Virus record (IMG/VR): IMGVR_UViG_3300037419_000284
Coordinates: 1 to 47,889 of that record
Strand: one strand, 5' to 3'
Length of the DNA stretch: 47,889 nt
Source: a virus
Taxonomy: Duplodnaviria; Caudoviricetes
A program made the position numbers and the translations under genes. Position 1 is the stretch's first letter, and the number at the start of each line of letters is the position of its first letter. The notes under the pieces are model-generated. The model worked only from the letters and a program-made list of their open reading frames with translations. It did no database searches and was not told the origin of the DNA. Positions 2,970 through 45,112 of the stretch are shown here, in pieces.

Positions 2970-5900
2970 TTAGTAGGAAGTTCCCTTGAAGGTTAAGTTT
3001 TGGAACTTAGTATCCTTCTTAATGACTTGCATAGCCTTCTTAACTGCTGTCTCAACAGTAGCTTGAAGTTGCCCTGTATCTTGCCCGCCTTCCACATTAA
3101 CAGTGATGTTAAAGTTCACATCTCCCCCATTGTGAGTAGTGTTGCTAGCACCCACTAGTGAAGAAATTTGTTTCTGTGTGAATACTCCTTCGCCTTGACG
3201 AAGAACAGCTTGCAATTCATCAGGTTTTAAGCCATTTGGACTAGAGAAGTTCATCATACCTGCAAGACCACCAGTATGATATACGAACTGAGGACCAACA
3301 TAACCTGACTTACTACCGTACTTAACATGTGCCCACCCATTAGATGTTCCAAGGTAAGTAACAGCAGAACCCTTAGGTATAGTACCGATTACATTGTTGC
3401 CATATCCTGCACTACTACGGAAGTTTACTGTAGTATTGATGTGCTTAGTAGAGCCACTAGAACCGCTACCTGAACCACTACCACCTGAACTAGTATATGC
3501 CTTAGCATATTGAGCACTAATCCATTGGTTAGTTCCGATTTCTAAGAATCCACTCTTTTCACCAATTACATTTACCTTCGTACCCTTCTTAATTACTTTA
3601 ATTCTAGAAGACTTATTAGCATCAGGAGTTTTGTGGTCCCAAACATCTGATGTAGTGATATAAGTTCCTTTCTTAGAACTACTAGCAGGAGGGGCAGGAG
3701 TGTTAATCTTGCTAGTATCAGTTGAAGGTGTTGTAGTAGAACCACTAGTGCTAGGAGCACCTGTTCCAGTTCCACCAGTTCCCTCAGGACTTCCACCATT
3801 AGATGTAGCACCACCACTAGATGTGCCACCTGGGACACCACCTGGGGTACTACTTGAAGGAGGAGTAACGATAGGAGTTGTAGTAGTACTACCTGACCCA
3901 TCATCCGAACCCGAACCATTCTTACCAGTTGGGTCCCACTGTCTAACTTCACCGATACCTTTGGCTTTAGCTACTTGTGCAACTTCACTATCAATCTTGA
4001 ATCCATTAGGTGCATTGAACACTTGGTTCTTCATGATAGTAAACATACCATTGGTAGATGCTACAATTTGGTTAATTAAAGGTAGGAATGGTGCTAGAGC
4101 ATCTTGGAATTGCTGACTGAAATCGTTGTTGTTAAACATGTTAGCAACAGCGTTAGGGTCTCCGCTAGTAGCCGCTTGGGTAATTTGGGAAATTAATCCG
4201 TTAGTTACATCAAGCAATCCACTATTATTAAAGATTGAGCTAGCCATTGTACCTGAGATAGTTTGAGCCATTGTCTGTTTCATGCTATCAATGAATGACT
4301 GAGTAGAATCCATATTACCTTGCATACCACCTGATAAGGCATTAGCAAAAGCATCTTGGAATCCACTTGACAATGCATCAACCATCTTAACCGCATTTTC
4401 TTTAGTCTCATTCTGAACATCACGAAGGTCATTCATCTTCTTCATGTATTCATCTAGACTCATAGCACCCGCTTTAAATGCTCCAACTACCGCAGAACGG
4501 TAATCGTTCATTTGCTGAATCATTTGGTCATGTAATCCCGCAATAATCTGTAAGTTAGCTAGCTGTTGGTTCTCGTCCATCTTGCTTGAACCACCACCAG
4601 TTGTCCAACCATTACCAATATGACCTTGCTTTTTAAGAGTATCAATAACCTTTTGTGCTTGGTCTTTTGTTAGGTTCTTAGTTGAATCTAGGTAGTACTT
4701 GCCATCCTTATCCTTAGTAACCTTAGAACTTATGTCATATTGCTTATGCAGTATGTCACTTAAGCCTTTAGCATACTTGTCAGATGAACCAAGTGCAATT
4801 CTGAGACCACTACCATTAGTAATAGTGCCATTCTTATACTGATTTATTGCAGTTGTTAAGTTAGACTTCTCTTGGCTATAGTCCTTGCTTTGAGTGTAAG
4901 CCTTTTGCTTAACATATCCTTGGATACCCTTACCAGTTAATTCAAACATTGATTGAGCATTTTGTAGTCTTTGTTGCTCCAAGTCGTGTAGTTCTTGTTG
5001 TACCTTAACAGCCTCTTCTAAAGTTGTATACCAAGCATTAGTACCTTGTGCGAAGTTCTTAAGCACCGCATTAATCTTAGTAATTTTATCAAACATTAGG
5101 TTGATGTTATCTTGGTCACTTACACGCTTTGCCATGATGAATTGCGTTGTTTGTTGACCTGAGTTACTCCAAACATCTCCTGCAAGCTGAGTGTTCTTAG
5201 CGTGAGTATCATATGTTGTCAACATTGTAGACATTTCACCAAGTAACTTGATGTAGTCGGGACTCCACTCTTGACCTGCTTTATCCATAGCATTTAGCTT
5301 GTCATAGCCACCCTTCACATATGACATTGAAGTGTCATAGTTGTAACGAGGGTCTTTTTGTTGAGCATCTGATAATGTTTTATCATAATCAGCAAGTTGC
5401 TTATTTGTATCTTTCAATGTAGAGATTAAGTCGTCAATGGATTTAACAGCATCCTTATAAGTATTGTAGTCAGTAGTATTACCTGCTTTCAATGCCTTAT
5501 TAGCCTCGTTTACATAGTTCTTACGAGAAGTACTCAACTGATTTAACTGTTGGACTGTATCGTAACGCTGTTCAAACACATTTGCTCTCTCTGCATTTAC
5601 TCTATCATAGTAAGCTAGCCTTCCTGATGTACCCATTACATCGGTGATATTTCCTTGACCATATGCTATAGCAACATCTTTATTATAAGTCTCTTTTAAT
5701 CCCGCTACGCTATGTGTTTCAGCCTCAGCTTGCATAGCTGTAATGAAACTATTGATTGCAGACTTTAGAATATCTGACGCACTAGCCTGACCTTGTGTTA
5801 AGCTACCTGCACCGCCAAAAGCACCATCATAGTGTTTACCACCGTAGTAGTCACCCCAAGATGAAATATTGTCCTTAGATACAGGAGTGCCATTATGGTC

Positions 5901-8900
5901 AATAGTCCACATTTGGTCATTACCCGCATAGATACCAACATGGTGAATACTGTCAGCACTTTTACCAAAGAATACTAAATCCCCAGGTTGCAAGTCTTTC
6001 TTGTTTGTTACTTTTTTACCACCATCATTTTGAGCATATAGCCCTTTTGAACTTGTAGTACCAAGATTGATTCCTGCAAACTTACGGTAAACTTGCTCTA
6101 CTAGACCCGAACAGTCAGCAATACCCTTCTTCAAGAACTCTGTCCAATCTTCGATAACATGTGCTCCACCCCAAGAGTAAGTCAATTTAGACCTATCTCC
6201 TTTTACTGACGAGAACCATGAATCCATAGCTGAGTAGCTACCGCCACCACCACTACTTGAAGATGAACCTCCACTGCTTGCACGCAACTTAGCCAACAGG
6301 CTTGTGTTTTGTGATGCTGTACCTGTATAGTTGCTGATGCCATATTGGTGAGCCAACGATGTTCTTGCTGAGAAACTTGAACTCTTTCCAAGTGAATTTA
6401 GGTAAGCTACGATAGAATCGCCAGTATAAGAACTCTTACCAAAACCGCTACTAGCTGATGAAGAACTGCTACCGCCACCTGATGATACTGCTGTACCACC
6501 TAGTAGTGATGAAACAGAAATACCAGTTTGCTTAGAGTAGAATGATGCAACACCCTTCTCCCAATTTGGGTCTTCTGCATATGTGTGATTGATTGTAGGA
6601 ATTGTGTTCTTACCCGAACTAATGTAGTTTCCGATTAGACGAGTTAAGTCCATAATACCATCTGTCAATGTAGCATAGCTTCTGTATCCCTCATAGTTTC
6701 CGCCCTTCCAATAATCATTAGAACTACCAGTAGCTTTAATGTTACCAATATTGTTAGAATGGTTTAAGATGTTTGAGTTACCACCATTTTCTTGCATAGC
6801 GATTGATGCGATTAATCTAGGGTCAACACCGTACTTAGCACCCGCTTGAACGAATACTGAACCATATCCTGCTAAGTTACCTCTTAATACACCGTTGATT
6901 GTATTAGTATAGTCATTAACACCACTATTGTTCTTGGTTGGAACAGTGTTCTTATCAACCTCAGCGACTAACTCCTCGTGTGTATAAGATGATTCTAGTT
7001 GTCGTTTCATTTGGGCATATCCCGAAGTACCAACTTTATAGCCCATTTGCTCTAGGTATGCTTGCTCCTTTTGAGCGAATGTTCTATTGTCAACACTAGA
7101 AGGACTACCAGTGTAAGTAGGAATTGCCATAGCATTTGAGAATGACTGTGTTTGACCTGCAACAGAGTTAGGATTAGATGCCGAACTCATTTGTACTTTT
7201 GCCCAGTTTCCTAGAATAGTATTTAATGAATTTGCACCATTAAGGATTGTGTCTCCCGCTTTTTGGAAGTCGTTCTTGATTAGGTTCTTAAGTGGGTCAA
7301 TAAATGCCTTATCAAACTCGCTACCCATAGTCTTGTTAATATCATCATATGCCTGAGATAACTTCTGAGCGTCACCCTTGTAAGAGTTTAATGCAGTAGT
7401 CAATTTCTCATAGTTGTCAAGGTTAGTGTCACGGATTTGTGCCAACTTGTCATTTCTAGTAGCATTGTAAGGAGTGCCAGTAACAGCACTTCTCATTTGT
7501 GATAATGTATTAACTACAGCTAAATCATCCTGAGAGTTAGAAATTTGCTTGTTAGCATCTTTAACTAATTGAGTCCTGTTCTGAACTCTCTCCCATACAT
7601 CAGCATACTTATCAGAGTTTAATACCATATCCTTAAGCTGTTGTGCTTGGTCATACATATCAGCAGTAGTAGATGATACGCTGTCTTGGATAGATGTTTG
7701 TTTCTCTAATAGGTCTTTGTATGCTTGTTGCTCCGAAGACAAACCATTTTTTCCTGGGTTGTATAGTTCGTTGATGGAGAAGTCTTGGTTAGGGTTCTGT
7801 CTAGCTAATGTAGCCATCTCATTACTTACAGAACTAAGTTCTGCTTGATAGCCTTTTAGTAGTTGACCTGATGCTTTAATTAAGCCACCCTGAGCAGTTT
7901 GCTGTTCCTTACTATTTGGCTGAGACATTTGAACCATAGCACGACCCATACCAACCGCACTATTGATTTTGCTAATCTGAGCATCCATTACAGCTAGACC
8001 AGTAGATGCAACAATTAGTTGTGCTGTATACTGTTTCATAGCCTCTTGGTTTTGTAATTGGTCTTGTCTGCTTTGAGTATAGGCATCAGTTAATTGGTCT
8101 TGTGCGTCACCTAGACCACCCATAGTCATGATAAGTTTAGCGATATTTTTAAGAAGTTCTGCCTCGTCAATCTTTTGATTGATTTCTTTATCAGACATTC
8201 CTTTCTTTTTCCATTTCGCAATATCAGTTGTAGATGGTTCAGAGTAATTGCCTAAGAATTGGTCTAAGTTGCCTGACTGTTTAGCTAACTCATATTGGTA
8301 TTGAACATCATCAATCTTACTCTGTTTCACACCATGCTTAAGTGCAATACTGCTCTCTTTGGATAGTTGACCTTGTAGACTGTTCATGTTGCCGTCTATT
8401 TGGTTTTTCTTCTCCTCGATTTGTGCAGATTGAGTTTTGATTGCGTTCATACCTTGTTGAATTGCTTGGATTTTTTGATTTAGAGATTCAGTTGAGTTTG
8501 CACCCATGAATTTCATATCAATAGCATCCACATTGTATCCTAGTTCCTTCATAGCTTGACTAATTTGCTTAGTAAGTTTGTTAGTTTCAATCAAAGCCTT
8601 GTTATAATCCATAACATAGCTAGTATCAACTGCCCACTTATCTTTAGCCTCTAAGATAGGGTCTTTGAATCCATTGTCAACAGCCTTTTGGAATTTAGCC
8701 ATATCCTTCTTATCATTTAGGTCAGCCCTATATTCCTTCTTATCCATCTTGCCATCAGCACCAAGAAGGTGATATTTTACGAACTGATTACCCTTGCTAT
8801 CTTGACCGAAAGAGATACCGTACTTATCTTCCATCTTCTTTCTATCTGATGCGATTTTAGCATTTCTAGCTTGTGCTTTCATATCATATTCAGAAGTAGG

Positions 8901-11900
8901 AACAGATTCAGTAGTAGTATATCCGTAGTTACCTTGTGAAGTAACTGTTGTCTCTTTCATAAACTTAACATTCGCCTTGATGAAGTCTTGAATGTCTTTG
9001 TTAGTTTTATCCTTAGTAGCAGTGTCACCACCAGTAATCTTCTTAGAGACAGATATTAGACTCTTGTTTGTGGTATTGTATTGGTCTTGTGCTACCTTCT
9101 TAGAGTGTTCGATAGCTTTACTTACAACCCACCAAGCACCCGCTAACACAGTACCAATGATAGTTAATCTAGTTAATAGTAATCCAAATGTTCTTAATGC
9201 AGGTAGTAGTTTAACAAACCATTCTACTACACCTTTCATTATTCCACCCGCACGACTACCAACTGAACCTGCTACCTCACCTACTGCACCACGAGAACGA
9301 GAAGTTAATAGTAAAGTATCTCCAATGAAGTTACCTACCGCACCAATAGCACTTCTTCTAGCAGTTGTTCTCTCAATAGTGTTAGTAAGTTCACCACGCA
9401 TAGCTTGTAGACTTTCACGACTTGCCTCACTCATATTGATTCCAGTTGGAACAGTAGTTCTTGGAGCACTACCATTTAAAAGTCTGTTTGTCATAACATC
9501 TGATGCAGAGTATGTCATTACATCTCTTAATGCTTGCTCACCAGTTCTAACTACATTTTGACGAGGGCTTATCATAGGTACAGGAGCAAGACCCTCAGCT
9601 ACGCTAATTGCACGACCACCCCTAACAAGAGGTGTAGCACCTTCTATTTGCTTGAATCCAAGTCTACGACCTGTCATTCTTTCAAAGTAGTCGCCAATAG
9701 CAGGACCAAGTGGAGTTAAATGATTGATAACACCTGTCAATCCTTTGAAAGCTAATGTTAATCCAACTATTTCACTAGTCATTTTTACTGGATTGAATCC
9801 AAATAATATTTTATTATCAGAGAAAGCATCTGATAGTTTATTAATAACTGATAGTACGCTATTAACAACTTTGAATAATCCTGTAAATCCTTTAATTAAC
9901 AATCCGATTGTATCTAAAGCACCCAACTTAGCTAGTTGTTGAACTAGTTCCTTAACTTGTTCAGCTAGGTCTCCAAAGTTTCTCTTGATTGTATCTGAAA
10001 AAGAACTCCATGATTTTTGTAGTGCATCAGGATTAGCCTCAGCTTGCTTGTTGAACTCACCTGTATATTCACTATTAAATGATGCATCTAGGAACTTAAC
10101 CATTTTTGGACCCATAGCTGATGATTTACCAGTTAGTCCTGCTAGATTATTAGAAACGAACTCTTGGTCAGCCTCATTGAGACCGCCATATTTCTTTTTA
10201 ATCTGCTCAAATAGTTTCTCAGGTGTGTCATATTTATCAGTGTTAATTTTCATTCTGTCTAATGCAGATTTAACGCTTGGATTGTCAGGATGTGCTAACG
10301 CACCGAAGAACGCTTTACCAACTTGTGCCATAACAGCACCACTAGAGTCCGTATCAGTAAGGTTATATGCACCCAACATACCTGCAACATCTGTTGCCTT
10401 GATACCTTTTTTGATTGTATCAGGTGCAATTTCAGATAGTGCATCAGTTACATTGTTTGTGTTTACACCATTACCTTTCATAACTGCTAGGTAGTTGAAT
10501 AAGTTATCCATTTTACCAATATGAGATGTATCACCTTGCGTATACATAGCTTGGTATAATGAAAGAGAATCTTGTGCTATAGCATTAACATCTGCTGATG
10601 TTGCATCTCCACCATTAGAAACTGCTGAGAACTGAATGATTTTATCTACGATGTTCTTCTCAATATTAGGGTCAACTTTACCACTAATTTGACCATTACT
10701 TGTAATCAAGTTCTTTCTAGCTAAAACTTGTGCTTGTAATGGAACTACTGTATCTGCTGTACTAACACCATAGTTCTCACCAATACTAAATGCTTGGTTA
10801 GTGATGTTTGATTTTGCAGAGTTTATTCCCGCACCGAATTGAGAGAACTGGTCACTTAAACCGCCAGTTTGCATGTTAGTCATAACCATACTTACTTGTG
10901 CAAGTTTAGCATCAAAGTCAACCATTTGTGCTACCGCAGTACCAATAGCTTGTGACATAGCGTAGAATCCACTAGTAAATAATGTATAGACTCCAATATT
11001 TTTCATCATATTAGATGCCATAGATTTGAAACTTCTGTCTCCACGCTGAACAACTTCTCCAAGACTAGTATACTCGTGAGTTAATGTTCTAACTGAACGG
11101 ATATGACCTTCATCATCACGGTAGTTGATTGTGTATGCTCTTTGGAAGTTAGTTTGTTGTTCTCTAGCCATAGCCTGATTCGTTGGGTGAATGTGGTCTC
11201 TAAGTATTCTCATACTTTCAGATAGACTGACATTAGGGTTTCTAAGCATAGCATCATAATCTACACCTGAGTACTCTCTGTTAGCACCGTAACGAAGGAT
11301 ACCTTGGTTGAAGTCATTTGCTCTTTGTTGTCTATTAGACTCAGTAATTCTTGAACGGTTAATATCGTTAGCTTGCTTATGAGCCTCATTAACATCTTCT
11401 ACACGACCATAGTTAGGGTTTCCGTTGCGTTGCTCGTAAGCATTTACATAGTCATTCCATTGTTGTCTGCTAGTATTTCTTAGCTTTTCCCCCGCCTGTT
11501 GGTAAGGGTCAACATGGTTAGACTGTAATGAACTACGATACTTAGGAGTAGAGTTTGTTAATGCTTTAATTTGGTCATAGAAACTTTGTTCTTCATCAAT
11601 AGCTTTTTGAATATCTTTTTGCATTTTAGCGATATTATCTAATACTCTACGCTTGTTAGCATTACCAGTAATATTCTTCCCGCTAACTGAATCACGATAT
11701 TGTTGTAGCTTACTTTGAAGACCAACACGAACATTCTTAGTGTCATAGTACTTTTCATCTAATGAACGGTTATCAACAGGAGGAGTATTAGCCTCAGCCT
11801 CTCTTTGAGACTTACGATTCATACGCTCTTGATATTTTCTTTGATTCTCAGCCTGTTGTTGGTTGAAAATTTTATTTTGTTGTACCGCTTGCCTATATGC

Positions 11901-13226
11901 TACCTTAGGGTCTTGTACCCTACCGTAGTTCATATTTACATCATGAGCCATATCCCAAGCATCAGCAGGATTCTGTATTCTCTGCTTATTAGCTTGATAG
12001 ATTTGATATTCTCTTTTTCTTTGCTCTCTAAGCCCTTGATTTTGTAATGTGTTCATTTGAGCACGAGAAACACCATCCCAAGGAGATGTTTGTTGTCTCT
12101 TTGCTGTCCACACTCTATCATATCTATTAGCCTGTCTATGAGCATTATCTATCTCTTTTTGAAGTGCATCTAATTCTTTTAGCTTTCTTTCAGCCTCAGC
12201 CTTAGAGATGTTATTGATTACTTTTTCTTGTGATGTAGGTTGTGTAGCAAGCCTAGTTACAGACTTATTAACCTGAGCAGTACTAAAGCTACCTGCTTTT
12301 TGTTTAGCAATCTCAGAGGCTTGATTTGCTCTCTTGATTTGATTAGCTAGTTTTTCTTGTTTACGAAGTTCATCTTCAAGTTGCTTAGTATAGTCAGTAA
12401 CGGAAACATTTTTCTTACTTCCATCCTGTCCATATGCAACCATGTTGTCTGTTTTACGAGCCTTCTTAGGATTCTTAGCCCTGTCAAGTTCATCTCTTAA
12501 GTGTTGTAGTTCTTGCTCACTCTTGATTTGACTCTTAAGGTTCTCAGCTTTTTGTCTATAGTAAAGACGAACCTCGTCATAATCCCTCTTAGCTTGTTGT
12601 GCTGTATTTCTATTGCTATTGTTTCTAGAAACTTGTTGTCTAGCGTTATTGACAGGAGAAACACTTCTGTCTACACCTAGCCTACGGTCTCCGTTCCTAT
12701 GGTCTTGTTGTGCTACTACACTAGCTTTAACCTCAGCCTTAATAGACTCAATTTGAGCCTTGATAACTTTCATATCTTGGTCATTAAGTCTTAAGCCTAC
12801 ATTAATAGTAGCTTTGGTGTCACCGACCTGTTTCTGAATCCCTTCTTTTTCGCCCGCACCGACTTTGAGAGAGGTATTGACAGAAATAGTTTTCTTGTCG
12901 TCTGCTAGACTATTAATTTGTTTTCTAAGTTCACTAATGCGGTTTTGTAGTTTTCTAATACTACCTTCATCAATAGAGATAGGAAGTTTAATAGTAGGTG
13001 CTTGACCTTTATTATATCCATCTACTACCCTTTTAACATCACCTTGTAGCTTTGATATGTTAGGGTCTACAGATAAAGGTACTTTAATACCACCAGTTTT
13101 AGCGTTATCAAAGTGTTGTTTAATCTGTTTATCTACTTCTTTAACTTCATTAAGAAGTTTATTAATCGAACCAGTGTTTAACTGTAAGTCCGTTTTTATA
13201 ATATACTTAAATTCATTTCCTGCCAT
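2970..13226 (-). CDS. Tape measure protein with GH73/lysozyme-like, DUF3597-like, NlpC/P60 and two SH3b domains
   Basis: 3418 aa, long helical core; motifs YGVDPRLIASIAMQE, YSWGG..DCSGLV..PGDLVFF..HVGIY, VNFRSSAG..IPKG..GWAHVKY; GAGGAGG RBS. Confidence 0.92.
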   Translation of the reverse strand: MAGNEFKYIIKTDLQLNTGSINKLLNEVKEVDKQIKQHFDNAKTGGIKVPLSVDPNISKLQGDVKRVVDGYNKGQAPTIKLPISIDEGSIRKLQNRISELRKQINSLADDKKTISVNTSLKVGAGEKEGIQKQVGDTKATINVGLRLNDQDMKVIKAQIESIKAEVKASVVAQQDHRNGDRRLGVDRSVSPVNNARQQVSRNNSNRNTAQQAKRDYDEVRLYYRQKAENLKSQIKSEQELQHLRDELDRAKNPKKARKTDNMVAYGQDGSKKNVSVTDYTKQLEDELRKQEKLANQIKRANQASEIAKQKAGSFSTAQVNKSVTRLATQPTSQEKVINNISKAEAERKLKELDALQKEIDNAHRQANRYDRVWTAKRQQTSPWDGVSRAQMNTLQNQGLREQRKREYQIYQANKQRIQNPADAWDMAHDVNMNYGRVQDPKVAYRQAVQQNKIFNQQQAENQRKYQERMNRKSQREAEANTPPVDNRSLDEKYYDTKNVRVGLQSKLQQYRDSVSGKNITGNANKRRVLDNIAKMQKDIQKAIDEEQSFYDQIKALTNSTPKYRSSLQSNHVDPYQQAGEKLRNTSRQQWNDYVNAYEQRNGNPNYGRVEDVNEAHKQANDINRSRITESNRQQRANDFNQGILRYGANREYSGVDYDAMLRNPNVSLSESMRILRDHIHPTNQAMAREQQTNFQRAYTINYRDDEGHIRSVRTLTHEYTSLGEVVQRGDRSFKSMASNMMKNIGVYTLFTSGFYAMSQAIGTAVAQMVDFDAKLAQVSMVMTNMQTGGLSDQFSQFGAGINSAKSNITNQAFSIGENYGVSTADTVVPLQAQVLARKNLITSNGQISGKVDPNIEKNIVDKIIQFSAVSNGGDATSADVNAIAQDSLSLYQAMYTQGDTSHIGKMDNLFNYLAVMKGNGVNTNNVTDALSEIAPDTIKKGIKATDVAGMLGAYNLTDTDSSGAVMAQVGKAFFGALAHPDNPSVKSALDRMKINTDKYDTPEKLFEQIKKKYGGLNEADQEFVSNNLAGLTGKSSAMGPKMVKFLDASFNSEYTGEFNKQAEANPDALQKSWSSFSDTIKRNFGDLAEQVKELVQQLAKLGALDTIGLLIKGFTGLFKVVNSVLSVINKLSDAFSDNKILFGFNPVKMTSEIVGLTLAFKGLTGVINHLTPLGPAIGDYFERMTGRRLGFKQIEGATPLVRGGRAISVAEGLAPVPMISPRQNVVRTGEQALRDVMTYSASDVMTNRLLNGSAPRTTVPTGINMSEASRESLQAMRGELTNTIERTTARRSAIGAVGNFIGDTLLLTSRSRGAVGEVAGSVGSRAGGIMKGVVEWFVKLLPALRTFGLLLTRLTIIGTVLAGAWWVVSKAIEHSKKVAQDQYNTTNKSLISVSKKITGGDTATKDKTNKDIQDFIKANVKFMKETTVTSQGNYGYTTTESVPTSEYDMKAQARNAKIASDRKKMEDKYGISFGQDSKGNQFVKYHLLGADGKMDKKEYRADLNDKKDMAKFQKAVDNGFKDPILEAKDKWAVDTSYVMDYNKALIETNKLTKQISQAMKELGYNVDAIDMKFMGANSTESLNQKIQAIQQGMNAIKTQSAQIEEKKNQIDGNMNSLQGQLSKESSIALKHGVKQSKIDDVQYQYELAKQSGNLDQFLGNYSEPSTTDIAKWKKKGMSDKEINQKIDEAELLKNIAKLIMTMGGLGDAQDQLTDAYTQSRQDQLQNQEAMKQYTAQLIVASTGLAVMDAQISKINSAVGMGRAMVQMSQPNSKEQQTAQGGLIKASGQLLKGYQAELSSVSNEMATLARQNPNQDFSINELYNPGKNGLSSEQQAYKDLLEKQTSIQDSVSSTTADMYDQAQQLKDMVLNSDKYADVWERVQNRTQLVKDANKQISNSQDDLAVVNTLSQMRSAVTGTPYNATRNDKLAQIRDTNLDNYEKLTTALNSYKGDAQKLSQAYDDINKTMGSEFDKAFIDPLKNLIKNDFQKAGDTILNGANSLNTILGNWAKVQMSSASNPNSVAGQTQSFSNAMAIPTYTGSPSSVDNRTFAQKEQAYLEQMGYKVGTSGYAQMKRQLESSYTHEELVAEVDKNTVPTKNNSGVNDYTNTINGVLRGNLAGYGSVFVQAGAKYGVDPRLIASIAMQENGGNSNILNHSNNIGNIKATGSSNDYWKGGNYEGYRSYATLTDGIMDLTRLIGNYISSGKNTIPTINHTYAEDPNWEKGVASFYSKQTGISVSSLLGGTAVSSGGGSSSSSASSGFGKSSYTGDSIVAYLNSLGKSSSFSARTSLAHQYGISNYTGTASQNTSLLAKLRASSGGSSSSSGGGGSYSAMDSWFSSVKGDRSKLTYSWGGAHVIEDWTEFLKKGIADCSGLVEQVYRKFAGINLGTTSSKGLYAQNDGGKKVTNKKDLQPGDLVFFGKSADSIHHVGIYAGNDQMWTIDHNGTPVSKDNISSWGDYYGGKHYDGAFGGAGSLTQGQASASDILKSAINSFITAMQAEAETHSVAGLKETYNKDVAIAYGQGNITDVMGTSGRLAYYDRVNAERANVFEQRYDTVQQLNQLSTSRKNYVNEANKALKAGNTTDYNTYKDAVKSIDDLISTLKDTNKQLADYDKTLSDAQQKDPRYNYDTSMSYVKGGYDKLNAMDKAGQEWSPDYIKLLGEMSTMLTTYDTHAKNTQLAGDVWSNSGQQTTQFIMAKRVSDQDNINLMFDKITKINAVLKNFAQGTNAWYTTLEEAVKVQQELHDLEQQRLQNAQSMFELTGKGIQGYVKQKAYTQSKDYSQEKSNLTTAINQYKNGTITNGSGLRIALGSSDKYAKGLSDILHKQYDISSKVTKDKDGKYYLDSTKNLTKDQAQKVIDTLKKQGHIGNGWTTGGGSSKMDENQQLANLQIIAGLHDQMIQQMNDYRSAVVGAFKAGAMSLDEYMKKMNDLRDVQNETKENAVKMVDALSSGFQDAFANALSGGMQGNMDSTQSFIDSMKQTMAQTISGTMASSIFNNSGLLDVTNGLISQITQAATSGDPNAVANMFNNNDFSQQFQDALAPFLPLINQIVASTNGMFTIMKNQVFNAPNGFKIDSEVAQVAKAKGIGEVRQWDPTGKNGSGSDDGSGSTTTTPIVTPPSSSTPGGVPGGTSSGGATSNGGSPEGTGGTGTGAPSTSGSTTTPSTDTSKINTPAPPASSSKKGTYITTSDVWDHKTPDANKSSRIKVIKKGTKVNVIGEKSGFLEIGTNQWISAQYAKAYTSSGGSGSGSGSSGSTKHINTTVNFRSSAGYGNNVIGTIPKGSAVTYLGTSNGWAHVKYGSKSGYVGPQFVYHTGGLAGMMNFSSPNGLKPDELQAVLRQGEGVFTQKQISSLVGASNTTHNGGDVNFNITVNVEGGQDTGQLQATVETAVKKAMQVIKKDTKFQNLTFKGTSY

Positions 13227-13307: not shown

Positions 13308-13732
13308 CTATTCATCATAGTCTACACCTTCATATTTGAAGTTTACATCGTCTGCATCCATAAAGTTGTCGTCTTCATAATAAATATCATCTGCATCATC
13401 AAACACAATTAACTCGTCATGTTCTAATGCACTCTTACTTACATTGTTCATACTAGAACCGTTCTTCTTAGCCCTACTCTCGACTTCCTTGCTTTGTTTT
13501 TCAACCCACTTATCTAATAGGTCATCATTATTAATTATCTTCATAGGAGGTCTCTCATGGTGCTCATACACGCTGTCGTAAAATGAGAACCAATAAGCTA
13601 GTGCTAATTGAGAAGGATTCCAGTCAGCAACGATACCACCGAACAATGGTGAGCCTGTGTCTTTACTTGCTTTCCATCTTGCTCTCCATTCTGCTCCAAC
13701 TTCCCCTTGCCCTCTAGCTATTTCTCTTAGAA
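13308..13732 (-). CDS. Downstream (T-like) segment of the tail assembly chaperone, lacking a convincing start
   Basis: The frame of the 112-aa ORF stays open upstream as LREIARGQGEVGAEWRARWKASKDTGSP; no ATG/GTG/TTG between the TAG at 13775-13773 and the TTG at 13646; sits just before the tape measure. Confidence 0.65.
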
Positions 13733-13983
13733 CCCCAAACTGAGGTAAAAGACATTTGGGAATAACTTGTAGCTATTTCATAAGCAATATATGTATCATT
13801 TAGTGATTACGACAGGGGCTTTAGTTGGGCAAGGTTGAATGTAGTTACTTTGATAATTCGGCTTATGTATGATGGTGTGCCTACACCTTTAAGATACCTA
13901 GCTATCTTTCGCTACATTCAATTAATATTATCCTATCTATAAGCACTGATATATGATTCTATTACTTACTATATCACTATCTT
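13733..13983 (-). other. Structured intervening RNA element within the tail chaperone locus
   Basis: Inverted repeats 13835-13844/13912-13921 (10 bp), 13801-13807/13973-13979, 13779-13785/13861-13867, 13734-13739/13755-13760, plus two small hairpins at 13874-13908. Confidence 0.65.
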
Positions 13984-14638
13984 ATTCTTCAAATGTTTCT
14001 TCTTCCAACTCAGCGGGGTCTACAAGGAAGTCGGCAGGTAGACCGTTAATAAATGTCAAGAATTGATATACAATTAAATTAACAGTATTTTGGTCTTCCT
14101 CATTTTTGAAGTCTGCGTACTTTTCCCATACAGACTTACCTGTATCAGCGAACTCAGTACATTTATGAATTAAGAAGGACATTTTAGCCTCGTCTGCTTT
14201 AGCCTCAGCAGTATTGTTGAAGTACTTCTGTTTTTCTTGTTGCAAACCAAACATCTCGTCACGCAAAGCATTGATTTTAGATTCGATAGGAGCGATAGCT
14301 TTTTCTGATTCCATCTTAGACAATAGAACTAGTTGTTTTTCAATATCTTCTCTAATCTTTTCGATTCTTTCATCATCTTTGCTAGTCCATAGCTTTTTCT
14401 TTTTGATTAGTTCTTCCATTTCACGGTTAGTAGGTATATCGTCCATACATGCTTGGTTAAATACCTTAGAGTACTCCCAATCAGCTAAACGATTTTCTTC
14501 TACCTTTGGATAGCGGATTTGTAGTAAACCATACTTATCACTATCAAATACTCGTCTACCAGTTTGAACCTCAGTCATTTTTTCACGCTTTTCCTTGTTA
14601 GTCATTTCCTGACTTTCTTTTCTTTTGCTCTCAGCCAT
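13982..14638 (-). CDS. Tail assembly chaperone (G-like segment)
   Basis: 218 aa, acidic and coiled-coil; between the major tail gene and the tape measure. Confidence 0.65.
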   Translation of the reverse strand: MAESKRKESQEMTNKEKREKMTEVQTGRRVFDSDKYGLLQIRYPKVEENRLADWEYSKVFNQACMDDIPTNREMEELIKKKKLWTSKDDERIEKIREDIEKQLVLLSKMESEKAIAPIESKINALRDEMFGLQQEKQKYFNNTAEAKADEAKMSFLIHKCTEFADTGKSVWEKYADFKNEEDQNTVNLIVYQFLTFINGLPADFLVDPAELEEETFEE

Positions 14639-14716: not shown

Positions 14717-14965
14717 TTATTCTTTATCGTCAAAGTCAATCTGCTCGTCATACCGAGGTGTGTATTTCACTTCGTACTTTTCGAGTTCTTCTGACATTTT
14801 TCGGATTTCATCGTTACCTGACCTGAGAATCATTTTTCTGATTTTCGCAAATTGCTTAGGCTCAATATTAGCCATCTCCATTAGTGATAAAGAGTCTTTA
14901 AAGACTTTCTTTATGCTCTTAGAGACCGCCCTATTAAGACGCTCTTTGTCCTCGTTCATGCTCAT
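14717..14965 (-). CDS. Hypothetical protein
   Basis: 82 aa in the operon direction, AAGGAG RBS upstream. Confidence 0.6.
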   Translation of the reverse strand: MSMNEDKERLNRAVSKSIKKVFKDSLSLMEMANIEPKQFAKIRKMILRSGNDEIRKMSEELEKYEVKYTPRYDEQIDFDDKE

Positions 14966-15075: not shown

Positions 15076-16626
15076 TTAGCTAACTTGGTTAGCGTTTAAG
15101 TATTTGTCAGTGATAGTTAGGTTGTGAGCCATGAACTCGAATGATTGAGTAGCATCACTATCAACACGAACATCCCAAGACTCAGATTGTGGAATCAAGT
15201 TCTTGATGTAGATTGTTTTGATAGCATACTTATCAACATGACCCGCAGGTAACTTAGCACGCTTAACATCAGTTTCACGATAAATCTTAACTAGTAAGCC
15301 TTTATCTTTAACTAGGTCGTCAAGTGCAATTTCGTTAGCAGATGCAAGGTTAGAATATCCTGCGAAACGAGCCATTAATTCTAAATCTGAATCTTTAAGT
15401 TCTAGAGAAACAGAGATATTTAGAGGTAATGATAATGGACGGTCATATGGATACATAGAACCTAATTCTGCAAGTGGCTCTCTTTGTAGTGGAGCAGAGA
15501 TACGAGCAGTTTGGATACGAGTTGCACGAGCAGTATCAACTGTAACACCATCATTAGCAACAAGGTATAGTTCGATTTGACCTTCTTTTAATCCACCTGC
15601 TAAATCAGGGTGTGGAGTTTCAAGAGCAGGTACAGGAGCGAAGAACTTACCATTAGAACCGTTAGTTACATAACGAACTTTCACAAGGTCGCCAGTAGAA
15701 GGAGCACTTGTAAGAGTTAAAGTAACACCTGATACAGTGTAATCAGTACCTTCAACTAATTGAGTACCATTCTTAGTAACTTTAAGAGTTTTATTACCAT
15801 TTGCTAAAGTGTATGGAGTGTTAGTAAGAGTTAAAGCAGTTGCAGTAGTTGTTTTGATTTCATCTACAACCATTTGAGATGCACTGTTTAAGAACCAACG
15901 CTTGTTATCAGTTTCCATACGGTAAGATGCAGTTGCAACACCGTTTACTTGGAATGAAAGGTCAATATTGTTAGCATATACTCTTTCCATATACATTGTA
16001 CGAGCGATAGCACCGTTCAAGCCATCACCTGATTGCTTGATAGGAACATACATATCTGCTTTAGCCAATTCAAAATCAGTTGCAGAAATAGATGCCCAAG
16101 TACGAGAGTCAGTGATATTAGCTTGTGTTACAATGTTAGCAGATGGAGTAATACTAGCGATTTGGATAGCACCCGCAGGTAAAGATGCACCGATACCTAC
16201 TTTGTTTGCTACAGCATCAGAAGATACAGTAGGTTGTAAGTAAACTACTTGGTTTCCACTTGATTGTGCAGTAACAGTAGTACCTTCAAATAGTACACGC
16301 TGACCTTTTGCATAGTAAGAACCTGGGTTTACCTTAAGTGTTAATGTACCAACAGCACTTCCACTTGGAACTGCCTCAACTTGGCAACCAAAACCTTTGT
16401 TTGATAGTAAACCTAATAGTTCGTTTGTTCCGTTTTCGTTAGCGTCAACAGATACATCAACTTGTGGTACATCGTCAACAACTTCAACGATATTAAGTGT
16501 ACCTAATTCTTTAATGTCCTCAGTAGATAGACGAGAAGAACTTCCTAACGCTTGGATGCGGTTTCCTTGTGCATCATCAATGAAAGGTGCTGTTCCTGTA
16601 TATCGTACACGACTAGCTTTTGCCAT
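15076..16626 (-). CDS. Major tail (tube) protein with inserted beta-sandwich domains
   Basis: 516 aa; position between the tail completion gene and the chaperone; followed by a UUCG hairpin at 15046-15069. Confidence 0.7.
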   Translation of the reverse strand: MAKASRVRYTGTAPFIDDAQGNRIQALGSSSRLSTEDIKELGTLNIVEVVDDVPQVDVSVDANENGTNELLGLLSNKGFGCQVEAVPSGSAVGTLTLKVNPGSYYAKGQRVLFEGTTVTAQSSGNQVVYLQPTVSSDAVANKVGIGASLPAGAIQIASITPSANIVTQANITDSRTWASISATDFELAKADMYVPIKQSGDGLNGAIARTMYMERVYANNIDLSFQVNGVATASYRMETDNKRWFLNSASQMVVDEIKTTTATALTLTNTPYTLANGNKTLKVTKNGTQLVEGTDYTVSGVTLTLTSAPSTGDLVKVRYVTNGSNGKFFAPVPALETPHPDLAGGLKEGQIELYLVANDGVTVDTARATRIQTARISAPLQREPLAELGSMYPYDRPLSLPLNISVSLELKDSDLELMARFAGYSNLASANEIALDDLVKDKGLLVKIYRETDVKRAKLPAGHVDKYAIKTIYIKNLIPQSESWDVRVDSDATQSFEFMAHNLTITDKYLNANQVS

Positions 16627-24253: not shown

Positions 24254-26497
24254 TTAACTAAAGTCTAAACCACAACGACAATGAGGGTGCGGTCTTGGTG
24301 GAATATCATTCATACCGAACGCTTTACCATTTAGACCAGTACATGTAGAACAAGTTCTATCATCAATATGTGCTACCCAAGTCGCTGTACTCATTCCTGC
24401 GAACTGATTACCTTGAATCTTTGCTTGTCTTAGAGTATCTAATGCAACTGATTCAGACATAGCAGAAACTCTATACATATTGCTAGAAAAAACTTTATTC
24501 ACAGCTACAGTAGTTGGTAGACCATCTTTAATATTCTTTAAGATGTTGTCTTTAATGTCATAAGCTAACTTATGAACATAACTGTCATTCCAATCCTTAA
24601 GCTGTTGCTTAACTTGGTTAGCTTTATTGAAGTCAATATCATTTGCGTAGTTAGTAATTTCGTTATCATACATTTCGTCAATATACTTATCACTAGTTCT
24701 ACTTAATGATGCAAATAATCCTATTAAAGCACCTACTAGAAAAGCGTCTAACACAGATGGGTCTTTGTCCTTATTCTGTTCGACTAGATTTGCTACTTTA
24801 TTCTTGATAGAATTATAAGAATCTGCCAACTCAGTGACATATTCTTCTTGTACTCGACTAGAATATGCCATATGGAAATCAGCTTTAGCTTTAGGGGCAT
24901 TTCCGTCATTTTGAGTAGGCGAAGTCTGTCTTTCCTTCATTGGTTTTTGGGTCTTGCCATCATTAGGCTTACCCTTGTTTGGACCTGTCTGACCACCTTG
25001 GAAAGGTTGCTCAGGAGGTAGGAAGAATTGCGAGTTCTTCTTGTTACGCTTTTTAGTTTCAAGAATAGACTCGTAATCATGACCAGTTTCACTAAGAATA
25101 TCTTCTTCATCAAGTAATCCTCTATCATACATAGGAAGTAATACCTGTGCGACATATGTATCTTCACGAAGGTTCATCTTATTGAATACTGCTCTTGGAT
25201 ATGTAGGAAGTTTGTTTTCTTCTGCAATCCGTCTATATTCGGCATTTAACCATTGGGTTACTTTATATCTAGTATTATCTAATCTCTCAATTAATGAAAG
25301 TGTTGCAATCCAACCATTTGACATACTACTACGACTTGAACCTCCACCATCAACAAGTACTCTATTAACTCCTAGACCTGCCATAATATCTTCGTCTACT
25401 TGTTTGTACTTATCTTGGCTTAGTGTTTCAAAGCCCTCAGGTTTATGGAAATTAACTTCTAGAGTATGATTCCAAAACACAGTGTATGCTTTATTAGGTG
25501 TATTGAATAGTTCTGCGATTGCCTCTAAATCTTCATCTCCCGCAGGAAATTCGTCATTACCAACAGTAACAGTAACTAATTGATTTACCATTCCTTCAAC
25601 CATTGACATATCTAGCAATCTTAATTTTTGCTTAAACATGATTGGCTCGAATACTCTTTCTAAGAATGGGTTTGCGTATCTTTCATATGGTTGTTTCTTT
25701 CTAGTAATACTTGTGAATAAATTAGGGTCTAACTTAATCTTACCTGTCTTAGGGTCTATCATATTAGCTATGTTAGGTGGTAACTGAGTCATTAAGTTCT
25801 CAGCACTGTCAGCAGATGTAACTTGTGACTGACTAATAGCTAAGTAGGCTTGTGGTTGATTGAATAACATACTACCTTCGATATATACATTTAGTGGGTT
25901 TAAGATTGTATACCCTGATGGAAAGTTGTATGTACTACTCTTTTGAACCTTGCCCGCCTTAGTCTTAGTTGTTTTACTAACTTTAGCGTTTGTCTTATTA
26001 CGATAAATAAATACATTACCAGTTCTCCAATACTCTAGGAAAATCTGTTCTATTAATTCTTGTAATTGTACTTCGTCTGCCCACTTGTCAAATAACTGCT
26101 TTACTTCGTTATCTTCACACTCATGGACAAAGCCACTTGAACTAAAATCGACCATCATATCAATTACTGTAGCTACAAGAGGTTCATGTTTGTAAATTTC
26201 CATAGCCATATACATTTTGTGATGTGGAATGATAGGAGTTTTCATAGCGTATGTATATGGTTTGTTATTTGAATTGTACTCATAACCAAGAAAGTCGTTA
26301 CCGTTTGGGATATAACGGCTTTGCACGCTACCTTTAGCTAACCTTGGTTCTCCTTCAATGCCATATGGTACATTATTTTTATCTAATATATCCATATATT
26401 GTTGCATATTAGTAGGGTCAACTTTTAAAGTAACCTGTTTTTTACCGTTTCCTAAGTCGGCTTTGCTTACTATATAGTCTTTTTTATCTTCGCTCAT
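24254..26497 (-). CDS. Portal protein fused to an SPP1 gp7/Mu gpF-like head morphogenesis domain
   Basis: 747 aa right after TerL; C-terminal DDRTCSTC..PPRPHPHCRC motif. Confidence 0.8.
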   Translation of the reverse strand: MSEDKKDYIVSKADLGNGKKQVTLKVDPTNMQQYMDILDKNNVPYGIEGEPRLAKGSVQSRYIPNGNDFLGYEYNSNNKPYTYAMKTPIIPHHKMYMAMEIYKHEPLVATVIDMMVDFSSSGFVHECEDNEVKQLFDKWADEVQLQELIEQIFLEYWRTGNVFIYRNKTNAKVSKTTKTKAGKVQKSSTYNFPSGYTILNPLNVYIEGSMLFNQPQAYLAISQSQVTSADSAENLMTQLPPNIANMIDPKTGKIKLDPNLFTSITRKKQPYERYANPFLERVFEPIMFKQKLRLLDMSMVEGMVNQLVTVTVGNDEFPAGDEDLEAIAELFNTPNKAYTVFWNHTLEVNFHKPEGFETLSQDKYKQVDEDIMAGLGVNRVLVDGGGSSRSSMSNGWIATLSLIERLDNTRYKVTQWLNAEYRRIAEENKLPTYPRAVFNKMNLREDTYVAQVLLPMYDRGLLDEEDILSETGHDYESILETKKRNKKNSQFFLPPEQPFQGGQTGPNKGKPNDGKTQKPMKERQTSPTQNDGNAPKAKADFHMAYSSRVQEEYVTELADSYNSIKNKVANLVEQNKDKDPSVLDAFLVGALIGLFASLSRTSDKYIDEMYDNEITNYANDIDFNKANQVKQQLKDWNDSYVHKLAYDIKDNILKNIKDGLPTTVAVNKVFSSNMYRVSAMSESVALDTLRQAKIQGNQFAGMSTATWVAHIDDRTCSTCTGLNGKAFGMNDIPPRPHPHCRCGLDFS

Positions 26498-37450: not shown

Positions 37451-38950
37451 ATGTTAGAACACCTTAAAAATGCGACCAACGTAACTACTACAACTAATGG
37501 TGCTAAGGCACTAAAATCAACACAAAGCTATTTAGTAGACTTTTTCGCTTCCTCAGGAGCGTTGAGAAATCGTCCTAAATCTGATGCTTACCAACTGTTC
37601 TCTAAAGCATTTGCCGAAGATAAGTTGTTAGCTATGAAAGCCCTTTTCTACACTCGTGATATTCGTGGTGGATTAGGTGAGCGTGAAACATTCAAAACTA
37701 TTATCAAGCAACTAGCGTTTACTAACCCTGAGGCATTAGCAAGCAATATTAATCTAATCCCTTACTTCGGTAGATATGACGACTTACTAGTTTTACTTGA
37801 TACGCCTCTTGAAAAATTAGCTATGGCTATCATAAGAGCACAATTACTTGAAGATATGGACTTAGAAAATCCATCTCTATTAGCTAAGTGGTTGCCATCA
37901 GAAAACGCATCTTCTCGTGAGACTAAGCGTTTAGCTACAAGAGTAAGAACCAACTTAGGTTTATCATCTAAGCAATATCGTAAGACTCTATCAATGTTAC
38001 GCAAAAAAATCAACCTAGTTGAAACTAAGCTAACTGATAAGAAATACGAAGAAATTGAATACGATAAGATTCCTTCTAAAGCAGGTCTTGTATATCGTAA
38101 GGCTTTCTACCGTAATGACGAAGAAAGGTATACTGAGTTTGTAAATATAGTTACCAATCCAGTTATTGCGAAAGAAAGAGGAGTAAAGATTAACACTAAG
38201 ACACTATTCCCATACGAGATTGTCCATCAGTATTCATCTTATGCAACTACTCGTTATGGAACACACCTACATTGTTCTTTTAACACTAAGGTAGACCCAA
38301 CCCTAGAGGCTATGTGGAATAACTTACCTGACTATGTAGGAGATACCTTCGACAACGCATTAGCAGTAGTTGATACTTCCGCATCAATGCGTGGATTACC
38401 AATCGAGGTTGCTACTTCTTTAGGTCTTTACTTCGCTGAAAGAAACAAAGGAACATTCGCTAACCACTTCATTACCTTTAGTGCTGAACCTGAGTTACAA
38501 GAAGTTGTAGGTGCTACTTTAGGTGAGAAATTAGATAACATGTCCAAAGCTAAGTGGGACATGAACACAAATATCGAAAAGATGTTTGAGTTAGTCCTAA
38601 ATACTGCTATCGCAAATAATGTACCACAAGAAGAACTACCATCTAAGTTGTTTATCATCTCTGATATGCAATTTGACCGTTGCGTTAAAGGTGGAGGAAA
38701 TGTGACAGTGTTTGAAAACATGTTACAACGCTTTGCTAATGCAGGATATGTAATGCCTGAGTTAGTATTTTGGAATGTCAATGCTTTTGCAGGAAATCAC
38801 CCTGTTAAGTACGACCAAACAGGAACAGCATTAGTATCAGGTTGCTCACCATCTATCTTCAAGAACATTCTTGGAGGAAAAGATATGACACCATATGGTA
38901 TGATGCTAGAAGTGTTAAACTCAGAGCGTTATGACATTATAATCGCATAA
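37451..38950 (+). CDS. DUF2828-like protein: helical TROVE-like region plus C-terminal vWA domain (Ro60-like architecture)
   Basis: FYTRDIRGGLGER, LLAKWLPSE, MIDAS VVDTSASM, IISDMQFD, VFWNV. Confidence 0.85.
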   Translation: MLEHLKNATNVTTTTNGAKALKSTQSYLVDFFASSGALRNRPKSDAYQLFSKAFAEDKLLAMKALFYTRDIRGGLGERETFKTIIKQLAFTNPEALASNINLIPYFGRYDDLLVLLDTPLEKLAMAIIRAQLLEDMDLENPSLLAKWLPSENASSRETKRLATRVRTNLGLSSKQYRKTLSMLRKKINLVETKLTDKKYEEIEYDKIPSKAGLVYRKAFYRNDEERYTEFVNIVTNPVIAKERGVKINTKTLFPYEIVHQYSSYATTRYGTHLHCSFNTKVDPTLEAMWNNLPDYVGDTFDNALAVVDTSASMRGLPIEVATSLGLYFAERNKGTFANHFITFSAEPELQEVVGATLGEKLDNMSKAKWDMNTNIEKMFELVLNTAIANNVPQEELPSKLFIISDMQFDRCVKGGGNVTVFENMLQRFANAGYVMPELVFWNVNAFAGNHPVKYDQTGTALVSGCSPSIFKNILGGKDMTPYGMMLEVLNSERYDIIIA

Positions 38951-44180: not shown

Positions 44181-44251
44181 CACTCTATAGTATAAAGGTA
44201 ATACAGAGGTCTCATAAGCCTTAGTTGGTGGTTCAAGTCCACCTAGAGTGA
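44181..44251 (+). tRNA. tRNA-CAU (elongator Met or Ile2)
   Basis: Acceptor CACTCTA/TAGAGTG, loop CT-CAT-AA. Confidence 0.85.
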
Positions 44252-44253
44252 TA

Positions 44254-44325
44254 AGCAGTGAGGACAAACGGTAAGTTGCTAGGCTCATGCCCTAGAGATA
44301 GTAGGTTCAACTCCTACCACTGCAA
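44254..44325 (+). tRNA. tRNA-CAU, initiator-like (1:72 mismatch)
   Basis: Acceptor AGCAGTG/CACTGCA, loop CT-CAT-GC. Confidence 0.75.
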
Positions 44326-44328
44326 TTA

Positions 44329-44399
44329 CGTCCTATCGTATAATGGTAATACGGACAACTTATAATTGTCTAATATGAGTTCAATTCTCGTTGGGACGA
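44329..44399 (+). tRNA. tRNA-Ile(UAU)
   Basis: Acceptor CGTCCTA/TGGGACG, loop CT-TAT-AA. Confidence 0.85.
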
Positions 44400-44402
44400 T
44401 AT

Positions 44403-44476
44403 GCTGGCATAGCACAATTTGGTGGTGCGTCTGACTTGTAATCAGGAGGTTGGGAGTTCGATTCTCTCTGTCAGCA
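44403..44476 (+). tRNA. tRNA-Thr(UGU)
   Basis: Cloverleaf, loop CT-TGT-AA. Confidence 0.92.
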
Positions 44477-44487
44477 CCTTACACTGA

Positions 44488-44562
44488 TGGGTATTAGTTC
44501 AGTTTGGCTAGAACGCATGCTTTGGGAGCATGAGGTCGCAGGTTCGAGTCCTGTATACCCAA
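44488..44562 (+). tRNA. tRNA-Pro(UGG)
   Basis: Cloverleaf, loop TT-TGG-GA. Confidence 0.92.
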
Positions 44563-44575
44563 TATATTTTGACCC

Positions 44576-44604
44576 TTGACTTTTAACTAACAAGGTGTTA
44601 TAAT
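44576..44604 (+). promoter_or_regulatory. Internal sigmaA-type promoter of the tRNA array
   Basis: TTGACT-17 nt-TATAAT with extended TG. Confidence 0.85.
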
Positions 44605-44625
44605 ACAAATATAAGTTAATAACTT

Positions 44626-44698
44626 TGGCTAGTAGTTCAGTCGGTAGAACAAATGACTGTTAATCATTGGGTCGCAGGTTCGAGTCCTGCCTAGCCAG
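44626..44698 (+). tRNA. tRNA-Asn(GUU)
   Basis: Cloverleaf, loop CT-GTT-AA. Confidence 0.92.
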
Positions 44699-44701
44699 TA
44701 T

Positions 44702-44775
44702 GGGGGATTAGTTAAATGGGATAACATCTGCCTTGCACGCAGAAATCACGAGTTCGACTCTCGTATCTTCCACCA
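44702..44775 (+). tRNA. tRNA-Ala(UGC)
   Basis: Loop CT-TGC-AC, G3:U70, CCA encoded. Confidence 0.92.
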
Positions 44776-44784
44776 ATTTAATAT

Positions 44785-44858: not shown

Positions 44859-44861
44859 TTT

Positions 44862-44935: not shown

Positions 44936-44936
44936 A

Positions 44937-45007: not shown

Positions 45008-45018
45008 TATTAATATAT

Positions 45019-45108: not shown

Positions 45109-45112
45109 TTAT

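Follow-up and report, generated by a model that had tools for sequence, protein, structure and literature searches.

A stem-closed coding gap in a phage tail chaperone locus as a candidate site of partial translational bypass

How is the second part of a tail chaperone expressed when it begins without a start codon, in another frame and behind a folded gap? The question is raised by a locus in a 47,889-nt stretch of viral DNA (hereinafter designated the window), a piece of a large, tRNA-rich phage with relatives in Paenibacillaceae (Chengkuizengella, Paenibacillus). The minus strand carries, in order, a 516-aa gene, an 82-aa gene, G, the gap, T and a 3418-aa tape measure gene. The best explanation of this arrangement is a partial programmed translational bypass in place of the usual frameshift, in which a minority of ribosomes would hop over the gap and make a 344-aa GT protein. 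Judging from comparison of sequences, we give this reading a probability of about 0.65.

The G/T locus and its split

Two ORFs lie between the putative major tail protein gene and the tape measure gene, as in a Lambda-type G/GT locus. The putative major tail protein (tail tube; 516 aa, 15076..16626, minus strand) is named from its position only; it has no PHROG match and no Pfam match above cut-off. The tape measure protein (3418 aa, 2970..13226, minus strand), which has NlpC/P60 and SH3 domains, is named by its size and position. G (218 aa, 13982..14638, minus strand) falls in no PHROG or Pfam family, and its structure model has no Foldseek match at E ≤ 0.001, the viral matches being not significant. 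One G homolog (P0047) is named 'Tail assembly chaperone' in UniRef. The G model aligns with the HK97 chaperone 2ob9_B with a Z score of 7.7, which is middling (below 8), and with rmsd of 3.2 (85 of 104 residues aligned; model residues 24-199). Among the matches listed, only 2ob9_B covers the domain from one end to the other (24-199) with most of its own sequence aligned. Given its position, the one UniRef name and the middling structural match, G is probably a tail chaperone, which supports the G/G-T chaperone reading in the first-pass annotation of the window.

The reading frame of G stops at TAA 13984-13982, as annotated. The T frame (13308..13730, minus strand) comprises 140 codons counted from a predicted landing Leu. 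Its start, LREIARGQGEVGAEWRARWK, begins at CTA 13730-13728 in a frame differing from that of G, and an in-frame TAG stands at 13775-13773. Between this TAG and TTG 13646, the first ordinary start, there is one ATT and no ATG, GTG or TTG. The earlier description of protein-like sequence that resumes at 13730 without a start thus holds. Annotation pipelines start T at the internal TTG, and 28 conserved codons are lost.

The locus region is identical in two further contigs and is found as diverged copies in three relatives; therefore it is not an assembly artefact, and the split between G and T is real. A frameshift cannot cross the gap, as had been claimed: 13 T-frame stops lie between the junction codon and T, and there is no G/T overlap with a slippery sequence. 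The further claim that a long-range recoding event, either bypass or splicing, is needed is supported.

Some small features flank the two ORFs. The 82-aa gene (window 14717-14965, minus strand) lies between the tail tube gene and G and is followed by a terminator-like hairpin at 14703-14677; a similar small gene is found near G in four relatives (L025, L033, L035 and L140). Between the T stop and the tape measure SD there is a G/C hairpin (window 13294-13265, minus strand). By eye, a similar G-run/C-run hairpin precedes the tape measure gene in most gapped relatives and could attenuate or process the tape measure message.

Register of the junction and the gapped family

A search with the T profile matched 166 longer proteins, of which the 120 listed (lengths 320-355 aa) are the basis of the fusion counts. 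The N-terminal half of all 120 matches the G profile, and these proteins are therefore natural in-frame G-T fusions. At the family level, T is probably expressed as a C-terminal extension of G, which for the window's own protein is a prediction. The spacing from a Gly to the motif [ILV]-R-x-[ILV]-A-R is 6 residues in 114 of the 120 listed fusions, 2 in three and 4 in one, the motif being absent in two. In this register the window reads G-L-P-A-D-F-L-R-E-I-A-R (GLPADF-L-REIAR), and therefore 'DFL' (CTT) and 'LRE' (CTA) share one and the same Leu. The predicted junction joins Leu CTT 14026-14024 (Leu205), 14 codons before the G stop, to Leu CTA 13730-13728, with 293 nt skipped. The skipped stretch would begin at 14023, inside the G coding sequence, and not at the stop of G as first proposed.

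Other family members encode the junction differently. Two, L030 (C CCA AAC) and L140 (C CCT TTA), have canonical −1 slippery heptamers (X XXY YYZ) that give the same junction register, and four distant relatives (L025, L034, L035 and L141) have a fused GT gene beside a separate G gene. By analogy both products are probably needed, since distant relatives encode G and GT as two genes and lambda is reported to need a G:GT ratio of ~30:1 (PMC5009743). A further distant locus, L033:3134-3556 (P0226), has T in frame after the TAA of G, behind a small GC hairpin and with its own ATG, consistent with readthrough or a stand-alone T. Within one family the junction is encoded in four ways: by a −1 frameshift, by gene duplication, by a stem-closed gap, or by an in-frame stop after which T has its own start.

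The structure models agree with a join at Leu205. In the G model the ordered domain extends to about residue 205, and residues 207-218, a disordered acidic tail, have pLDDT below 50. In the fusion model the T helix comes right after the last helix of G, via a short loop. The QFLTFINGLPADFL just before take-off is conserved, and a like stretch is conserved in the frameshifting relatives too.

The gapped set comprises 11 distinct loci from the matches listed. Dropped before this count were same-junction duplicates, L027 (weak, E 2e-4), L028 and L029 (G cut off), the frameshifting L030 and L140, the fusions L025, L034, L035 and L141, and L032 and L033 (T after an in-frame stop). The gaps are long in five loci (293, 297, 295, 298 and 229 nt) and short in six (71, 71, 69, 67, 102 and 89 nt). 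Because they occupy all three frames (3, 4 and 4 loci) and hold 1-13 T-frame stops, −1 or +1 frameshifting and stop readthrough are rejected.

The predicted take-off codon (14024..14026, minus strand), placed by the register of the natural fusions, is CTT in 11/11 loci. Elsewhere in these G and T frames, CTT accounts for 25 of 214 Leu codons, and each of the further invariant Leu columns is encoded by 3-5 different codons. The predicted landing codon (13728..13730, minus strand) is CTA in six loci and CTT in five; in L026 a TAA stands immediately 5' of it. The corresponding residue in the 120 listed fusions is Ile in 102, Val in 13, Met in three, Leu in one and Thr in one. Alignment of homologues, which had been suggested as a check, shows that T is conserved from L-R onward, with L-R kept in all 11 gapped loci. 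The codon after take-off is always sense (GTA, GTT, ATT, TCA, TCG, CAA or TTC), with no stop or rare codon.

The codon evidence is strong in our reading, and it is not 11-fold independent: the 11 loci are related, with 65-88% nucleotide identity in G, and therefore 11/11 does not represent 11 independent events. There are also other single-codon columns in these loci, namely Gln CAA in G and Arg AGA and Asn AAT in T. At T codons +5 and +6 (window 13715-13710), Gly is GGG in 10/11 loci and Arg is AGG in 6/11. This bias suggests an RNA-level constraint downstream of the landing codon, in short gaps too; no partner for this segment was identified in the short gaps. Trees of G and T resolve only one clade, the four close long-gap loci, and therefore no order of events is claimed.

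Wider searches added no locus with the insert of the long gaps. With tblastn, neither G nor T had a match among annotated phages, and G had none among plasmids. Genome searches matched only the bacterial genome G005 among 4 family genomes, and G005 and one weak match among 401 order genomes. The DNA pattern of the T start was found in 23 stretches, 10 of them known loci and 13 without the motifs. The insert pattern was found in 66 stretches, only 6 of which match the insert profile, all of them known loci; therefore the long-insert set consists of four sequences and L022.

The closing stem and the long insert

The 293-nt coding gap (13731..14023, minus strand) contains the last 13 codons of G, its stop and the insert, with the stop (13982..13984) inside the region that would be looped out. 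It is predicted to fold as a long rod, with MFE of −74.9 kcal/mol and z of −6.1, which 0 of 60 shuffles equalled. When the fold is confined to 13700-14010, and the 5' arm of the closing stem is thereby left out, z is −1.23, and 10 of 100 shuffles do as well. With its correct boundaries, the structure of the gap exceeds chance.

The rod is closed by a stem between a 5' arm at 14009..14020 (minus strand; G codons D-P-A-E) and a 3' arm at 13731..13744 (minus strand), which has a G-run at 13736-13733, two nt before the landing codon. The best partner of the 5' arm among 2101 control windows is the pre-landing 24-mer, and the stem beats synonymous recoding with p = 0.008. In 10/11 loci the best partner of the 24 nt that follow take-off is the 24 nt that precede landing (~2000 control windows each). 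In L031, 7 of 1145 control windows equal or surpass that partner, and the fold of the gap has a z of only −1.7. Compared with synonymous recoding, the stem stands out at p < 0.05 in 9/11 loci, L003 and L022 being the two without significance. In 11/11 loci the positions from +8 to +14 are paired and the pair types change, the pairs being taken from each sequence's own fold. In the close long-gap loci, all 44 cells of this stem (helix 1) are paired, with double changes at 2 pairs. The stem pairs include G-U/A-U alternations on the sense strand, which point to a constraint on sense-strand RNA; a DNA-level hairpin is disfavoured by the same alternations.

The stem brings the two Leu codons close together. 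Specifically, 1-11 unpaired nt remain between the take-off codon and the landing one when the gaps are folded, and pairing extends to within 0-5 nt of landing. The stem core starts 6 nt after CUU, and pairing can begin 3 nt after it in long gaps; the reported spacing of 3' frameshift stimulators is 5-9 nt (PMC5009743). A G-rich SD-like run lies 2-6 nt 5' of the landing Leu in 11/11 loci, and the same run is the 3' arm of the stem. A second hairpin over the landing codon, which seemed conserved by eye, was rejected, having passed synonymous recoding in only 1/11 loci. Promoter and terminator scans found none inside the gap.

The first-pass annotation had described a gap folded into several helices including a 10-bp stem and a crossing 7-bp pairing. 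The 10-bp stem is confirmed, and the crossing pairing that we find has 8 bp and is perhaps not the one described. Specifically, the conserved apical domain of the long insert (13835..13921, minus strand) has a 10-bp helix (helix 2), 13921-13912/13844-13835, around hairpins at ~13908-13891 and 13887-13874, both of whose loops carry AGG. Next to it lies the invariant CCTTGCCC (13827..13834, minus strand), predicted to cross-pair with GGGCAAGG in T, downstream of the landing codon. This predicted pairing of an insert segment with T (CCUUGCCC/GGGCAAGG) joins 13834-13827 to 13712-13705. A comparable pairing is found 104-111 nt before the landing codon in 5/5 long gaps (L022 at 104, the others at 108-111).

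Covariation, proposed earlier as a check, is present in part. Across the four close long-gap loci 116 of 116 cells pair, with double changes at three pairs in these four sequences only; helix 2 contributes 40 of 40 paired cells, with three one-sided changes and one double change. The crossing helix is invariant in the four loci and hence gives no covariation. The two hairpin loops of the insert (13902-13897 and 13883-13878, minus strand; …UAGG/AAGG, AGGCA) could also jointly pair with CCUUGCC 13834-13828, mimicking GGGCAAGG. Such an alternative pairing, which likewise has no covariation, is a possible two-state switch.

The fifth long-gap locus, L022 (L022:3044-3395), has a 229-nt gap whose insert does not match the others, and keeps GGGGTT before landing and the T pairing ~104 nt upstream; its insert may be an independent or a much diverged expansion. 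One insert copy is present in the window (24% complete) and one in the relative G001 (89% complete), both at the G/T locus; neither record has a second copy, and no insert was found in G002-G004. The apical domain has no Rfam match at gathering level, and at E ≤ 5 over 13600-14100 Rfam gives only a chance snoRNA match, which agrees with the earlier statement that the insert holds no group I core. The insert had also been taken to be what splits the gene, which the comparison contradicts: six relatives without the long insert still have a 67-102-nt stem-closed gap, so the insert appears merely to enlarge the loop of a family-wide element.

Bypass, its alternatives and known recoding systems

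Translational bypassing is reported to be marked by matched codons in register, wobble-only differences and indifference to frame (PMC5009743; 10.1101/2022.08.31.505936). By sequence, the locus has these marks: the codons match in the protein register, they differ only at the wobble position, and the gaps occur in every frame.

The proposed mechanism has four steps. First, the stem beyond CUU would stall translocation, like a frameshift stimulator. Second, most ribosomes would melt the stem and end G at UAA. Third, in a minority, peptidyl-tRNA-Leu would leave CUU 14026-14024 and re-pair with the CUA or CUU held 1-11 unpaired nt away. A tRNA-Leu with anticodon UAG could, by the wobble rule, read both CUU and CUA. 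Fourth, decoding would restart at AGA and yield GLPADF-L-REIAR. For the apical domain and its pairing to T, the model would add a role in tuning the G:GT ratio or in holding the landing segment; of all the steps it has the least support. A phage-borne tRNA-Leu(UAG) as a required part was not borne out: it is seen in the window and G002 and not in the tRNA clusters read from G001, G003 and G004 (2/5 records).

The gap may be looped out or scanned. The bypass efficiency of T4 is reported to fall steeply beyond 56 nt (PMC11194080). Even at a processivity of 0.99 per nt, only 5% of ribosomes sliding over 293 nt would arrive, and sliding over this distance is unlikely. The window gap holds ten CTT/CTA triplets besides its 13 T-frame stops, and the long gaps hold 8-13 CUU/CUA each; these decoys appear to favour looping out over scanning. 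In T4, however, the anticodon is reported not to scan the first part of the gap (10.1101/2024.12.09.627546). Since the stem holds the landing codon 1-11 unpaired nt away, the loop would be passed as a folded unit and not scanned. Bypass specifically by looping out is a tentative proposal, one that we judge somewhat below even. A 'shunt' of the ribosome would be its fullest form: while a sense codon occupies the A site, a folded domain of up to ~300 nt would be passed without scanning, the tRNA would re-pair at a matched codon across the base of the stem, and the conserved pseudoknotted module in the loop would set the G:GT ratio for tail assembly; this too is possible rather than probable. The natural series of 67-298-nt loops makes the question of sliding or looping out directly testable. 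In the literature searched, which covered few subscription papers, we found no bypass or intron in a G/GT gene and no earlier case in which a ribosome gets past a folded insert of 290 nt in cis; a possible bypass mentioned in a Cluster O paper concerns the start of the tape measure gene (PMC4351075).

Among the alternatives, removal of the gap at the RNA level survives best and is unlikely. The gap would be an intron with paired ends, removed by a ribozyme (the apical domain) or by a nuclease and a ligase, and the protein junction would be the same, the G:GT ratio being set by incomplete splicing. All five long gaps allow an in-register cut after GAC-U with GG at the intron end, restoring D-F-L-R with group I-like ends (cuts after U and after G), whereas the same U/G junction in the six short gaps gives a stop (5) or Ser (1). 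Across all 11 loci, the gap ends share no sequence other than the CT repeated in both Leu codons. Pairing between the exons reaches significance in the four close long-gap loci (p 0.004-0.04) and fails to do so in 7/11. The insert has invariant loop sequences, as ribozymes have; however, Rfam gives no intron match, whether at gathering level or at E ≤ 5, and neither inspection of the insert nor Rfam revealed a group I P3-P7 core or P, Q, R and S elements. A group I or II core would not fit into gaps of 67-71 nt. The ligase RtcB is found in 0/4 phage records (71-89% complete) and in 1/1 bacterial genome (G005). The paired ends bring the junctions together under either model, and the wobble pattern, CUU to CUA/CUU, is what tRNA re-pairing predicts. 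If splicing is nevertheless the answer, an intron without a recognised core would be about equally interesting.

Ranked behind splicing, and also improbable, is synthesis of T as a separate protein by coupled re-initiation. Here the stem would be opened and its SD-like 3' arm exposed, and T would start at low level at CUA/CUU or at an AUN three codons on. The G-rich run 2-6 nt before the Leu codon in 11/11 loci could serve as the SD, and in short gaps the stop of G lies just upstream of it, whereas in long gaps the distance to the stop is ~250 nt and only 2 nt separate the G-run from CTA. CUA and CUU are very poor start codons. The +3 codon is AUN in 11/11 loci, and seven database T proteins are called from Met at +3, a position at which Met occurs in 0/120 listed fusions; the distant L033 (P0226) has a T with its own ATG. 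On the other hand, the SD-to-AUN spacing is 11-15 nt, the starts at which T is called lie at scattered places, and in L026 no codon precedes CTA. L-R, which lies upstream of the AUN, is conserved and shows synonymous change (AGA 10, CGG 1), and the fusion model runs the T helix on from the last helix of G. A separate T also leaves unexplained the invariant CTT in G at the fusion register and the Leu that replaces the Ile of the fusions.

The junctions of the first-pass annotation, either splicing of 13983-13733 (…ETFEE-F-LREIAR) or a hop from the GAA before the UAA to GAA 13724, are very improbable: the splice is in frame and the hop has a stop after GAA, as in T4 gene 60, but the splice would leave a 14-residue acidic tail between GLPADFL and LREIAR where 114/120 fusions have a fixed 6-residue spacing, the hop would land where the 11 gapped loci have E, A, Q, M, L or I and would drop the L-R kept in 11/11, the tail of G varies in length and sequence among homologues, and the conserved stem closes around CTT and CTA instead.

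The proposed bypass works like that of T4 gene 60 but fails two of its defining features, as far as sequence comparison tells. In both, out-of-frame ORFs are joined over a non-coding gap between codons that match or differ at the wobble position, with a run 5' of landing that may act like an SD and with mRNA structure, as reported for T4 (PMC5009743; PMC11194080; 10.1101/2022.08.31.505936; 10.1101/2024.12.09.627546). T4 gene 60 has a stop after take-off, whereas a sense codon follows in 11/11 loci here. The T4 gap is 50 nt, little structured in its 3' part and crossed by sliding; the gaps here are 67-298 nt, paired to 0-5 nt of landing, with decoy codons that argue against T4-style scanning. 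Unlike in T4, a single stem with a GC-rich base closes the gap, which also serves as the coding tail of the first ORF. The SD-like element of T4 lies ~6 nt 5' of landing, whereas the G-rich run here lies at 2-6 nt and is also a stem arm. T4 gene 60 is an efficient rescue of an insertion, whereas two products and a minority hop are expected here, and no homing endonuclease adjoins this locus.

The byps of Magnusiomyces mitochondria, which contain hairpins, are likewise gaps between matched or near-matched codons. The present gap differs from them in the bacterial ribosome, in having no unused A-site codon, in being a single conserved site with no second copy (window and G001), and in being up to five times longer. 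Documented natural bypass gaps are 50 nt in T4 and 27-55 nt in the byps, the two systems described as established, both of which rescue harmful inserts of ≤55 nt (PMC5009743; 10.1101/2022.08.31.505936). The reported gpG/gpGT of lambda is similar in lying before the tape measure gene, in making G and a longer GT, and in a stem spaced like a 3' frameshift stimulator (PMC5009743). Its −1 frameshift occurs at the same junction in the two family members with slippery heptamers; here, by contrast, the junction has no G/T overlap, and joining the two means skipping 293 nt. The candidate bypass in the terminase of Streptomyces phage Hau3 also concerns a phage morphogenesis gene with an SD-like element, but its gap is reported to be much shorter and dependent on the rare codon UUA, neither of which applies here (PMC5009743).

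Were the preferred reading true, bypass would set the ratio of two products without a stop or a hungry codon. According to a 2016 review, bypassing with a regulatory role would broaden interest (PMC5009743). At about six times the length of the T4 gap, the span would far exceed the 56 nt past which sliding is reported to lose processivity (PMC11194080). The window adds the longest gap class and its conserved apical module. In trans-translation by tmRNA, coding is likewise taken up again at a defined position, beside a large folded RNA that has to get past the ribosome. By comparison, the element here is cis-acting, has no tRNA-like domain and would use a matched-codon landing; the shunt would be a cis-acting, size-independent counterpart of template switching. 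No tmRNA was detected.

Elsewhere in the window there is an array of 24 tRNA genes (44181-46328, plus strand), which includes a tRNA-Ile with anticodon UAU (44329-44399; called in G002 too) and a single tRNA-Leu, UAG, at 45856-45941. Upstream of the array lies the gene for a 499-aa DUF2828/DUF7788 (vWA-like) protein (37451-38950, plus strand), which matches PHROG 850, 'RNA-binding protein'. The portal protein (window 24254-26497, minus strand) has a fused C-terminal head-morphogenesis (minor head) domain.
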